Sequence record: OR539219.1
Reading direction: 5' to 3' (one strand)
Source of the DNA: Escherichia phage vB-Eco-KMB39
DNA: 64,000 bases
Each line of letters starts with the position of its first letter. The stretch's first letter is position 1. The notes under the pieces were generated by a model. That model did not search any database, was not told where the DNA came from, and was given only the letters and a program-made list of their open reading frames with translations. Below, one piece after another: positions 40,993-44,222 of this stretch. The position numbers and the translations under genes are program-made.

Positions 40993-41009
40993 GGGGCTGT
41001 AATAGCCCC
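40993..41009 (-). other. RNA hairpin between small early genes
   Basis: GGGGCTGTAATAGCCCC. Confidence 0.4.
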
Positions 41010-41016
41010 TTGATAA

Positions 41017-41247
41017 TTATTGTTCAATCAGTCCCATATAAAATTCTGCATCTTCAGAATCCATGCCATCACAATATTCATTAGCCATAAAGCGGGTGAG
41101 GTCTTCAAGAGGACCTTCAATGACAATAGAAAAATTGCAATAATTGGGATCATCATGAATACTTGTGATACTAAGTTCAGGATAACGATTACGAATAATT
41201 TCTTCAATATATTCAAAATCAACGATGTCAATATCAACTTTAGCCAT
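41017..41247 (-). CDS. Hypothetical acidic protein downstream of gene 32
   Basis: 76 aa ORF preceded by early promoter. Confidence 0.55.
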
Positions 41248-41291
41248 ATTATTTTCCTCTTTTAATCATCAGCAGTATTGCCGATAGTTGT

Positions 41292-41320
41292 ATAGTACCA
41301 TGGAATGACAAGAATGTAAA
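41292..41320 (-). promoter_or_regulatory. Sigma70-type phage early promoter (conserved cassette)
   Basis: Minus strand: -35 TTTACA, 17 nt, -10 TACTAT; A/T-rich UP-like tract upstream. Confidence 0.6.
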
Positions 41321-41351
41321 CTGTTTTGTGAAAAAATTTTAAAATAAAAAA

Positions 41352-41370
41352 GGGGACCTCTAGGGTCCCC
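41352..41370 (-). terminator. Gene 32 intrinsic terminator
   Basis: GGGGACC-TCTA-GGGTCCCC; minus-strand hairpin followed by UUUUUAUUUU about 25 nt after the gene 32 stop. Confidence 0.7.
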
Positions 41371-41392
41371 AATTAATTAGTAATATAATCTA

Positions 41393-42298
41393 TTAAAGGT
41401 CATTCAAAAGGTCATCCAGGTCCGTGTCATCAGCACCAGATGAACTGCCAGAGATTGAGCTCATAAAATCATCTTCAGTTTTTGGTTTGAAGTCATCAAC
41501 ATTGAATGCATCCAAATCATCAGCAACTTTATCAGCTTTCTTAGCAGCAGTTGCAGCGGCACCGCCCATCACAGCAGTTCCCATAACTTGACCGAATTTA
41601 GTGCTCAGTTCTTCAAATGATTTGAATTTATCTTTAGAAGTCATTTCAGAAAGGTCAACCATTTGTTCGAACAGTTCTTTCTGGAAAGATTCATCATCAA
41701 TGTTTGGAATCGCAGATTGATTCAGGAATTTAGATTCGTCGTAGTTACTAAAACCAGAAACTTGTTTAACTTTCAGTACAAAGTTAGCACCTTCCCACGG
41801 ACAAGTTACATCAACCGGAGTTTCACCCATTTCAACATCAACTGCAATCATTGCATTGATTTTATCCCAGATTTTCTTACCGAAACGGTATTTAAATACT
41901 TTACCTTCATTTTCTGGAGCAGCTGGGTCTTTTACTACAAGAATGTTAGCCCAGTAAGAAGTTTTACGTTTAACAAGACCGTACTCTTTATTGTCAGTGT
42001 TATACAAATCATTTTTACTGATGTATTGACATACTGGGCAAGAATCGTAATCACCGTGGGTAGATGAACATGTTTCAATATACCATTTACCATTTTTCTT
42101 GAAACCGTGATTTACAAGAATTGCGAATGGTGCTTGTTCATCATTTTTAGACGGAAGAAAACGAATTACTGCTTGACCGTTACCCGCATTATCGAGTTTC
42201 AGTTTCCACTCGCCTTTATCTTCAGAAGAAAAACCTTTATTGCCATTCAGTTTAGCCATTTGTGCAGCAAGTTCAGCAGTAGATTTACGTTTAAACAT
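41393..42298 (-). CDS. 32: Single-stranded DNA-binding protein gp32
   Basis: 301 aa; [49 protein letters not shown]...; zinc ligands; acidic C-terminus; matches recalled T4 gp32. Confidence 0.95.
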
Positions 42299-42370
42299 TT
42301 TATTTCCTTTTTAATTTAATTTAATTAACAGTTGGTGCTATGACACTTTACCTCATAGCTGGCATAATTC
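42299..42370 (-). promoter_or_regulatory. Gene 32 autoregulatory translational operator (pseudoknot plus unstructured A/U-rich tract)
   Basis: mRNA leader ...AUGAGGUAAAGUGUCAUAGCACCAACUGUUAAUUAAAUUAAAUUAAAAAGGAAAUAAA-AUG matches the recalled T4 gene 32 operator; overlaps 3' end of segG. Confidence 0.7.
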
Positions 42371-42985
42371 GCAATACTCTGGGTCTTCGAGAGGTATCCA
42401 ACCTGAGTTGAAATACTTTACCATCGATTTAGCAGTTGTATCAGTTATATTTATATTACCTTTAACTCTTCGCCATCCAGGAGTTTTACCGTACAGATTA
42501 GAGGATAATAATAACACATAATTCTCGTAAGCAATATGAGATAATTTCCAAGACTCTATATTAGCTCGTGATGTTTTCCAAGGTCTAAAATCGTCACGGT
42601 TCATATAATTAGCCAATCTCATATGCTCTCTAACTTCCGGGTCTTTAGCTGGATGAGTTTCACCACTCACACCAAATCCACCACCAGCATATACCAGATT
42701 AAAATAGTCTGGATTATCTCTGGCATTTACTTCAAGTTGGTATTTTCGTTCTGCTTCAATAACATCCAAGTCATCATCAATTTGAATTATTTTAACGCTC
42801 GGTTTTTGAAGCATTACCGCATTCAAAAATCTTTTTTGTTTACATGAGCTCCAGTATTCCTTTCCGGAAGAGTCATATATTATTCCGTTCTCAAATGAGC
42901 AATTTAATTTACTACCGATATAGTAGTATGGCGGAGTCTTATTTTTGACACGGTCTTCAAATGTAAACCAATATACTATATTCAT
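42353..42985 (-). CDS. segG: GIY-YIG homing endonuclease SegG
   Basis: 210 aa; N-terminal GIY-YIG-like motif (IVYWFTFEDRVKNKTPPYYYIGSK); located between genes 32 and 59 as T4 segG. Confidence 0.7.
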   Translation of the reverse strand: MNIVYWFTFEDRVKNKTPPYYYIGSKLNCSFENGIIYDSSGKEYWSSCKQKRFLNAVMLQKPSVKIIQIDDDLDVIEAERKYQLEVNARDNPDYFNLVYAGGGFGVSGETHPAKDPEVREHMRLANYMNRDDFRPWKTSRANIESWKLSHIAYENYVLLLSSNLYGKTPGWRRVKGNINITDTTAKSMVKYFNSGWIPLEDPEYCELCQL

Positions 42986-42986
42986 A

Positions 42987-43640
42987 TCAATACTTGCAAG
43001 ATTTCACAGTTTCAATGAAAACATTTTTAGCTTTCTGTGAATCAATATTTAAAATTTTTCTATAAGCCTTTAACTTTATAGAATAATTATTCCAGACTAA
43101 ATTATCAGTCTGTTCATCGTGTTTATCAATTATATTTAAAAACGAATCAAGCAAGATAAACGTCTCAAACGAAATTATGTTCGATTGCAGAAGTTTAAAA
43201 ATATAACTTGACTGAACCTTTGGATTATATTCAAAGATTTCTTTAAAAGCAGAAACTTCAACTTTTTTACTAAAATAGTAAATATTGCGAATATCTTCTT
43301 CAAACTTAAACTTAATTTGCTTTAAGCGTCCGATATATTCACGATAAAACACAAGTGCATCAGCGTCAGAGATGTCGCCAATCCAAGCATCTTGGTTAGC
43401 AACCAAATTACTTATAAAGATTAAAGCGAGTTCCTTTAATTTATATTTTTCTGATAACTTCTGGAAAAAATACTTATCCCTTCGCTTTTGATAAGCGGCA
43501 TCAGACACCCGCATGCACCAATTATACTTAATAACATCATACTTTCCATTCATATGTTGTTTTATCATTAAGTATAATTTATAAACTGATTTACCATCAA
43601 TGTATCTTTCACCACCAGCAGGCATGCGGAGTTTAATCAT
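42987..43640 (-). CDS. 59: gp59 helicase loader
   Basis: 217 aa; same length and position as T4 gp59. Confidence 0.88.
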   Translation of the reverse strand: MIKLRMPAGGERYIDGKSVYKLYLMIKQHMNGKYDVIKYNWCMRVSDAAYQKRRDKYFFQKLSEKYKLKELALIFISNLVANQDAWIGDISDADALVFYREYIGRLKQIKFKFEEDIRNIYYFSKKVEVSAFKEIFEYNPKVQSSYIFKLLQSNIISFETFILLDSFLNIIDKHDEQTDNLVWNNYSIKLKAYRKILNIDSQKAKNVFIETVKSCKY

Positions 43641-43975
43641 AGCAGAAAATCTAATGTATTAGTTTTTTCACAACGAACAACAGAAGGACGTAAAAGATTT
43701 TCGTCAATAGCTTCCGACTGAATTTTTTCAATTATACCCGAAGGAATAAATTTAGCAAATTGAGTTTCAGGAATAGAGTTTTCTTCCAAGAATGCTGTCG
43801 TAGCTTCAAGATAACTCATTCCAAACTCTTCTACCATTTTTTCAATAATAAATCCATTTTCTTGACGATCAAGAAGCTTTGCTATTTCATCCTTTTCTTT
43901 CTTGATTGAAAGTTCTTTTTCTGAAAGACCGGTCTCATCGACCGGACGAATATCATTTAGAGAAAACTGTGTCAT
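43637..43975 (-). CDS. 33: gp33 late-transcription co-activator
   Basis: 112 aa from ATG at 43975 (MTQFSLNDIRPVDETG...). Confidence 0.85.
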   Translation of the reverse strand: MTQFSLNDIRPVDETGLSEKELSIKKEKDEIAKLLDRQENGFIIEKMVEEFGMSYLEATTAFLEENSIPETQFAKFIPSGIIEKIQSEAIDENLLRPSVVRCEKTNTLDFLL

Positions 43976-44222
43976 AAAGTTCAACTACCTCTTCAGTTTC
44001 AGCTTCAAACACATCACGGTTATCTTTATGATACAAAGCTAATAGACGATTAAACATCTTACCATCAACGCCAAGTTCATCTTTGGCACGAATTCGAATA
44101 TCTTTAATCAGTTCATTATAACCGGAAATTTTCAGTTTATGATCAGATGCTTCTTTAATAAATTTAGCCAAGTCTTCGCCATGGATAGCTTCATCAAATT
44201 CAACCATTTCTTTTTTAGCCAT
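43953..44222 (-). CDS. dsbA: DsbA double-stranded DNA-binding protein
   Basis: 89 aa; size and position as T4 dsbA; overlaps gene 33 start. Confidence 0.8.
   Translation of the reverse strand: MAKKEMVEFDEAIHGEDLAKFIKEASDHKLKISGYNELIKDIRIRAKDELGVDGKMFNRLLALYHKDNRDVFEAETEEVVELYDTVFSK

Follow-up and report, generated by a model that had tools for sequence, protein, structure and literature searches.

Does a homing endonuclease gene that runs into the translational operator of the gene downstream gain anything from the overlap? The question is raised by the junction of genes 59 and 32 in Escherichia phage vB-Eco-KMB39 (OR539219.1), of which one stretch of 64,000 nucleotides, referred to here as the window, was analyzed. 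An initial sequence-only reading had placed the gene 32 translational operator at 42299-42370 and extended its pseudoknot into the last codons of segG, proposing that the endonuclease coding sequence is constrained by an essential RNA structure that may stabilize the selfish gene at this locus. Every feature of the locus lies on the minus strand, including the operator, for which no strand had been given:

42987-43640 (-): gene 59 (helicase loader), the upstream neighbor; an open reading frame with Pfam T4_Gp59_N/C
42353-42985 (-): segG (ORF 32.1), a free-standing homing endonuclease gene of 633 nt encoding 210 aa, UGA stop at 42355-42353
42448-42455 (-): TATAAATA, the T4 late-promoter consensus, within the segG coding sequence; a sequence match whose promoter role comes from the literature
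42299-42364 (-): gene 32 operator as a whole, directly 5' of the gp32-family single-stranded DNA-binding protein gene on the same strand
41393-42298 (-): gene 32 (gp32, single-stranded DNA-binding protein), 301 aa, AUG at 42298-42296, from the list of open reading frames

The designation of the element as the gene 32 autoregulatory operator was borne out by a Pfam gp32 gene directly downstream, by the presence of a pseudoknot and repeats, and by near-identity to T4. The gene 32 product matches Pfam PF08804 (gp32, E=3e-66) and is 97-98% identical to T4-type gp32 loci. The neighbors 59, segG and 32, as well as the overlap of segG with the pseudoknot, are arranged as in T4 (MT984581); the window comes from a close relative of T4 and differs from the T4 reference, its best 2.2-kb match being phage vB-Eco-KMB40 (99.5%). 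segG starts 1 nt past the gene 59 stop (UGA U AUG), and its own stop had been correctly located at 42353-42355.

The endonuclease sits at the 59/32 junction and is near-identical to the experimentally characterized SegG of T4 (99.5% over 210 aa; residue 57 is V in the window and L in T4), with 99.5-100% identity to the annotated SegG of T4 and its relatives. It also matches the homing endonuclease family PHROG 7504 (E=2e-133). The identity of the protein was based on these two matches in place of Pfam, a search of which gave no GIY-YIG match even at E<=10; by eye, residues 3-24 contain a GIY-(10)-YIG-like motif, IVY...YIG. According to the papers citing Liu et al. 2003 (PMC535899, PMC2988022), SegG cleaves gene 32 DNA of segG-less phages and homes with co-conversion.

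The leader mRNA, read 5' to 3' from 42370 to 42299, is GAAUUAUGCCAGCUAUGAGGUAAAGUGUCAUAGCACCAACUGUUAAUUAAAUUAAAUUAAAAAGGAAAUAAA, followed by the AUG at 42298-42296. Its parts are:

42365-42370 (-): GAAUUA, segG codons Glu206-Leu207; region of the RNase E -71 site by counting, and the point at which homology to segG orthologues ends and homology to the intergenic DNA of segG-less Mosigvirus phages sets in
42337-42364 (-): H-type pseudoknot of 28 nt, identified by covariation, a covariance-model match and the literature; by analogy with T4, the presumed gp32 nucleation site
42361-42364 (-): stem 1 5' strand UGCC, the segG Cys208 codon and first base of Gln209, pairing with 42349-42352
42360 (-): loop 1, a single A, invariant across all 11 aligned sequences
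42353-42359 (-): stem 2 5' strand GCUAUGA, including CUA (Leu210) and UGA (segG stop)
42349-42352 (-): stem 1 3' strand GGUA; helix 1 is 100% paired, with double-sided changes in 3/4 pairs
42344-42348 (-): loop 2 AAGUG, which together with stem 1 separates the T4-type from the T2-type allele (UACAUCG)
42337-42343 (-): stem 2 3' strand UCAUAGC; helix 2 is 98.7% paired, with double-sided changes in 4/7 pairs
42299-42336 (-): unstructured A/U-rich arm of 38 nt, with UUAA(A) repeats at 42310-42328 and the Shine-Dalgarno sequence AGGA at 42305-42308
42353-42364 (-): overlap of the segG coding sequence with the pseudoknot, 12 nt, UGC CAG CUA UGA (Cys208, Gln209, Leu210, stop)

The knot is of the H type, with a stem 1 of 4-5 bp, a loop 1 of one base, a directly stacked stem 2 of 7 bp and a loop 2 of 3-7 nt in the sequences compared. 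Between the RNase E site and the start codon, the window and T4 differ by a single A, which the window lacks in the spacer that follows the Shine-Dalgarno sequence, and the pseudoknot is accordingly numbered -66 to -39 here and -67 to -40 in T4. The arm reads UUAAUUAAAUUAAAUUAAAAAGGAAAUAAA, followed by AUG, and its repeats reach the Shine-Dalgarno sequence and the start codon; the repeat as quoted by the sequence-only reading contained one A too many. Near-identical phages have between 2 and 5 UUAAA copies in their gene 32 leaders, in genomes with segG and in those without it alike. The A-run between the Shine-Dalgarno sequence and the AUG (42299-42303 in the window; L001, L083, L084 and L094 were also compared) consists of 3 or 4 A. 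Such variation in UUAAA number or A-run might tune the set-point of repression.

In T4 the gene 32 operator is a classic of translational control. Its pseudoknot (-67 to -40) and UUAAA/UAAA repeats were described by McPheeters et al. 1988 and Shamoo et al. 1993, as cited in PMC535899, and the structure of the T2 knot was determined by NMR (2TPK, cited in PMC3014915). Footprinting and in vitro translation on the T4 and RB69 operators established that gp32 nucleates at the knot, spreads cooperatively and occludes the ribosome-binding site (PMC535899, PMC3014915). For the operator in the window, gp32 binding, repression and RNase E cleavage are taken over from published work on T4, whose sequence is near-identical. 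As established for T4, gp32 in excess over the available single-stranded DNA would nucleate on the 28-nt pseudoknot, and would then spread cooperatively in the 3' direction along the UUAA(A)-repeat arm, covering the Shine-Dalgarno sequence and AUG and blocking its own translation. By the same analogy, the A/U-rich arm is the presumed cooperative gp32-binding site through which the ribosome-binding site is occluded. The pseudoknot of E. coli rpsO is unrelated in sequence and acts by a different mechanism, ribosome entrapment. It is the analogue named in PMC3014915, an operator pseudoknot bound by the product of its own gene (S15).

The overlap with segG has itself been known since 2004. Borjac-Natour, Petrov and Karam (Virol J 2004, PMC535899) marked it in the legend of their Fig 3 and in their Discussion, and proposed a chimeric origin for segG, the gene having been extended into a pseudoknot that the recipient genome already possessed. 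Retention by embedded host signals was published in 2010 for promoters in segG, when Edgell, Gibb and Belfort (Virol J 2010, PMC2988022) described gene 32 middle and late promoters inside the gene that "favor retention of the endonuclease". Both the operator overlap and the chimera hypothesis have long been in print, and the finding is of little weight as a discovery; it is an example of a homing endonuclease gene fusing with its landing site, and the comparative refinements reported here are modest and confirmatory and open no new question. Newly found are the complete linkage of segG with the T4-type knot, Dhakavirus orthologues without the overlap, and an apparent graft of three codons.

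The operator does not lie wholly downstream of the segG stop. As the sequence-only reading had claimed, the pseudoknot reaches into the last codons of the gene, and the 12 shared bases make up the stem 1 5' strand, loop 1 and the stem 2 5' strand; they amount to 12/633 nt of segG, or 3 sense codons and the stop. The segG frame runs into the 5' half of the pseudoknot and ends at the UGA inside stem 2. Signals for the downstream essential gene within the segG coding sequence comprise these 12 nt and TATAAATA, the promoter function of which is known from the literature. A scan of 42250-43100 for sigma-70-type promoters and terminators, a range of motifs that excludes T4 middle and late promoters, returned counts equal to chance. 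Antisense to the pseudoknot, at 42340-42368 (+), lies a sigma-70-like ATGACA-17-CATAAT with an upstream TG, the regional count of such sites being that expected by chance.

The origin of the overlap is suggested by comparison with orthologues and with segG-less phages. The 59/32 junction also holds SegG orthologues in two Dhakavirus phages, MX01 and VR5 (58% identity), and in MHG19, a phage of Yersinia (34%). Their C-termini align through ...GW-P--DPE(F/Y)--(K/E)(L/F) and then differ in length and sequence, the tail being CQL* in the window versus KCLT*, KMLYSK* and KSLHVI* in the orthologues. This homology ends at about GAA-UUA, and from AAUUAUGCC on the homology is to the intergenic knot of segG-less phages. 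On these alignments, the final three codons of SegG appear to be a graft from a pre-existing host RNA element: through a short microhomology, AAUUA, the knot would have supplied three codons and a stop in place of the native SegG C-terminus, and the overlap would be a by-product of how the segG element inserted. Because AAUUA is shared and Leu210 aligns with a conserved Leu of the orthologues, the breakpoint is blurred, and part of the tail could be native. So far as alignment can tell, the junction supports and sharpens the chimera idea of 2004.

The segG-less relatives carry the same element in intergenic DNA. In phages of the T2/T6 type the fold is again of the H type, with the stem 2 (GCUAUGA/UCAUAGC), the single-A loop 1 and the downstream arm as in the window, whereas stem 1 has 5 bp (UGACC/GGUCA) rather than 4 bp with one G-U (UGCC/GGUA), and loop 2 has 7 nt rather than 5. 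The T2/T6-type knot lies in a 99-nt intergenic region without segG, 17 nt downstream of TATAAATA. The window is homologous to the T2 type from 42362 (CCAGCUAUGAGG...) on; before that position the T2-type stem 1 strand is a different one, UGACC, with GGUCA and the longer loop 2 as its counterpart. The stretch CCAGCUAUGA, UGA included, is identical in the segG-less T2-type phages, which shows that the open reading frame borrows a pre-existing stop and that the RNA does not depend on the gene. RB69 (Mosigvirus) has a homologous pseudoknot, and its AAUCAUACCAGCUACGAGGUAUAAGUGUCGUAGC aligns with the window from 42369 on, including the bases that are segG codons here; segG is absent from RB69, and its repeat arm is longer and diverged. 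A compensatory change from U-A to C-G in stem 2 of RB69 means that no UGA is present there. The Mosigvirus (RB69-type) intergenic sequence AAUCAUACCAGCUACGAGGUAUAAGUG... likewise aligns with the window from 42369.

Among the Dhakavirus orthologues, segG of MX01 and VR5 stops 24-29 nt upstream of a homologous knot, ACCU-A-GUUAUCA-AGGU-aaacg-UGAUAAC, with zero overlap. The overlap is consequently not a trait of the family; judging from these alignments, it is peculiar to the T4 lineage of segG. In VR7, TH55 and MHG19 an endonuclease gene occupies the junction and the knot is absent. The 59/32 junction is a recurrent landing place across genera, with SegG-related genes (34-58% identity) in Dhakavirus, Gaprivervirus and a Yersinia phage, whose starts overlap the gene 59 stop (ATGA). 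Their positions in the loci compared are:

L095 1501-2136; L096 1501-2130; L097 1501-2049; L098, L099 1495-2130: SegG-related junction genes

The annotation of Mosigvirus OLB35 (L089, 134-817) places a homing endonuclease between gene 33 and gene 59, one gene farther upstream than segG sits.

We consider it likely that the element is the autogenous translational operator of gene 32 of a T4-type phage (Tequatrovirus), with the overlap a by-product of insertion that has little role in the persistence of segG. The pseudoknot would act on transcripts that either start inside segG or have been cut by RNase E about 5 nt upstream of the knot, on which no ribosome would be translating segG. The endonuclease gene would persist mainly through homing with co-conversion and through the embedded gene 32 promoters, the 12-nt overlap adding little.

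The comparison of genomes with and without segG, proposed together with the initial claims, was carried out on the about 498 phage records in which the leader is present, 141 with the T4-type and about 357 with the T2/T6-type knot. A homing endonuclease lay under the match in every T4-type record sampled, while the match was intergenic in every T2/T6-type record sampled; tblastn with SegG returned 141 T4-type copies. Two chimeric-junction queries, with a best full-length match of 90.9%, recovered neither segG joined to a T2-type 3' half nor a segG-less junction with a T4-type 3' half. segG and the T4-type knot allele are fully linked in these genomes, and on the available sequences the operator allele and the endonuclease gene travel as a single block in each of the sequenced Tequatrovirus genomes examined.

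When 7 genomes with segG were compared with 7 without, fixed differences past the junction occurred in the stem 1 3' strand and loop 2 alone (-53 to -47). SegG may cleave about 330 bp from its insertion site. A co-conversion tract was sought in gene 32 of the same 14 genomes, and the fixed differences were confined to the knot. Polymorphisms of gene 32 at +30 to +63 (about 42236-42269 in the window) are shuffled between genomes with and without segG, indicating recombination within 80 nt of the knot. The polymorphisms of the 5' coding region include a 3-nt indel at +63, unlinked to segG (by comparison with L084, L085 and L094). PEC04 and Lv5cm, which have segG, carry T2-like gene 32 alleles, and SG1, which does not, carries T4-like alleles. 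In the metagenomic T4-like locus L001 (about 1818-2450) segG appears frameshifted while knot and leader are intact, and in the lab mutant T4_7t1 (L100, 1501-2059) segG looks broken or frameshifted, again with knot and leader intact; either could be true decay or a sequencing error.

Does the linkage mean that the overlap holds segG in place? It has been proposed that overlap with a needed RNA structure selectively stabilizes segG, in that loss or decay of its 3' end would harm autoregulation of gene 32. We regard this as unlikely. That none of the about 498 records combines absence of segG with the T4-type allele, and that stem 1 spans the insertion boundary with both of its strands covarying with segG presence, are what would be predicted, and complete linkage would also fit selection against a mismatched stem 1, raising the importance of the overlap. 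The two strands of stem 1 are, however, 13 identical bases apart, a distance at which complete linkage is expected without selection. The broken-looking segG copies do keep their 3' end and knot, yet the frameshifted gene indicates that coding function can decay while the RNA stays, so that what is protected is 12 bases and not a gene. With 12 of 633 nt shared, the knot is left untouched by any deletion whose end lies upstream of 42364. T2-type phages have a working knot without segG, Dhakavirus orthologues persist at the same junction without overlap, and the overlapped tail is variable in length and sequence among SegG orthologues. Many T4-like phages (60-80% gp32 identity) have no pseudoknot, gene 59 nearly abutting gene 32. 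A like logic has been published for the embedded promoters of the same gene (PMC2988022), to which the pseudoknot adds just 12 nt at the extreme 3' end.

Of the constraint and stabilization put forward by the sequence-only reading, the overlap itself stands, while the stabilizing role is weakened by the small share of segG involved, the variable tail and the Dhakavirus orthologues. Its description of the structure as essential goes beyond the published requirement, which is for repression rather than for viability (PMC535899), and many T4-like phages lack the pseudoknot. The overlap probably stabilizes segG very little, and homing with co-conversion together with the embedded promoters are the better-supported reasons for the persistence of the gene.

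The position of the segG stop codon within stem 2 invites a different role, regulatory coupling, in which a ribosome terminating on segG would unfold the knot and transiently relieve gp32 repression, while gp32 bound to the knot, or RNase E cleavage at -71, would throttle SegG synthesis. If true, endonuclease output would be tied to gp32 and to the status of single-stranded DNA. RNase E cuts all gene 32 mRNAs at -71 (Uzan and Miller 2010, PMC3014915). By counting, this site is expected to map to GAAUUA 42370-42365, in segG codons 206-207 and 4-5 nt upstream of the knot, and a cut there removes the stop codon from the segG message. The segG transcript is processed by RNase E, which was suggested possibly to lower segG transcripts (Edgell et al., PMC2988022), and a segG without obvious Shine-Dalgarno sequence that starts 1 nt past the gene 59 stop suggests low, coupled translation. 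We nevertheless hold coupling to be improbable. The argument is one of geometry, from the position of the stop and that of the RNase E site, and most gene 32 mRNA originates from promoters in segG or is RNase E-processed and carries no translatable segG. The Dhakavirus orthologues have no such arrangement, and according to the 2010 review RNase E processing is compatible with efficient segG homing (PMC2988022).

Linkage and coupling could also be combined. Stem 1 straddles the right-hand boundary of the mobile element, and a co-adapted strand pair together with coupling at termination would serve segG as both linkage lock and regulator. The 5' strand is the SegG tail and the 3' strand a segG-specific allele of host sequence; if the two are co-adapted, recombinants that gain or lose segG unaccompanied by the 3' strand that fits would be left with a weaker operator, with a stem 1 of 3 bp instead of 4-5. 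Termination inside stem 2 would couple endonuclease output to gp32 occupancy, and the operator would be more than a neighbor of segG. We give this combination as little credence as coupling by itself, and the reading of the overlap as a by-product of insertion is preferred.

All of these readings assume that the pseudoknot is real, and the covariance analysis proposed at the outset was run on T-even leaders. Gene 32 leaders were gathered from IMG/VR and GenBank phages and yielded eight distinct knot sequence types, from Tequatrovirus (T4-type and T2-type), Mosigvirus, Dhakavirus and four other IMG/VR lineages. In an alignment assembled by eye from sequences of our choosing, from which the structure was also written, the two-stem structure was 99.2% paired across 11 sequences versus 74.6% in column shuffles (0/500 as good), and controls with slid partners paired at <=50%. 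Double-sided, compensatory changes were present in 7/11 pairs, and both helices were supported. By this comparative evidence the pseudoknot is strongly supported over eight sequence types. A covariance model of stem 2 plus sequence matched the window once (E=1e-11). Among 99 loci it found the types already known and added no independent ones, and in 54 distant environmental T4-like loci it found nothing, three matches with E of 0.2-0.8 not being upstream of gene 32. The repeat block occurs once in the 64 kb, against 0.05 occurrences expected.

In the proposed RNA structure prediction a nested minimum free energy fold of the 75-nt leader, by a method that cannot model pseudoknots, recovered stem 2 alone, with a z of -1.33 versus shuffles that is not significant, an outcome to be expected of a pseudoknot. 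In the centroid fold the Shine-Dalgarno sequence and AUG are unpaired. A scan of 41000-44000 against Rfam 15 at E<=10 gave chance matches alone, no family for the operator reaching threshold, and a curated Rfam model for the gene 32 operator appears to be absent. DUF2815 RNA, at 42296-42353 (-), scored 18.5 bits against a gathering threshold of 41.2 bits (E=4.9) and was set aside as chance. That the apparent pseudoknot is itself chance complementarity in an AT-rich leader, with no real structure behind it, can be dismissed: the fold is not significantly better than shuffles and a family match is absent from Rfam, but nested folding cannot score pseudoknots and still finds stem 2, and the reading is already refuted by the compensatory changes in both stems and by the literature, with its NMR structure of the T2 homologue and footprinting.

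The sole unpaired cell of the alignment is in Shigella phage sb1 (L086), where the stem 2 3' strand is UCAUAUC and not UCAUAGC, breaking one pair; it may be a true variant or a sequencing error. L024 and L025 were left out of the alignment, their knot being seemingly arranged differently: at about 2400-2470 these loci carry ACAAUGAA...UUCAUUGU interleaved with GGUGUAG...CUACAUC, which the covariance model missed. Leaders without a knot carry repeated AAAACUGU(A/C)AAAAACUGUAAAUA units, seen at about 2400-2500 in L005-L011, L013, L014, L016, L019, L020, L022 and L023, and these AAAACUGU-type repeats abutting gene 59 are possibly a different gp32 operator.
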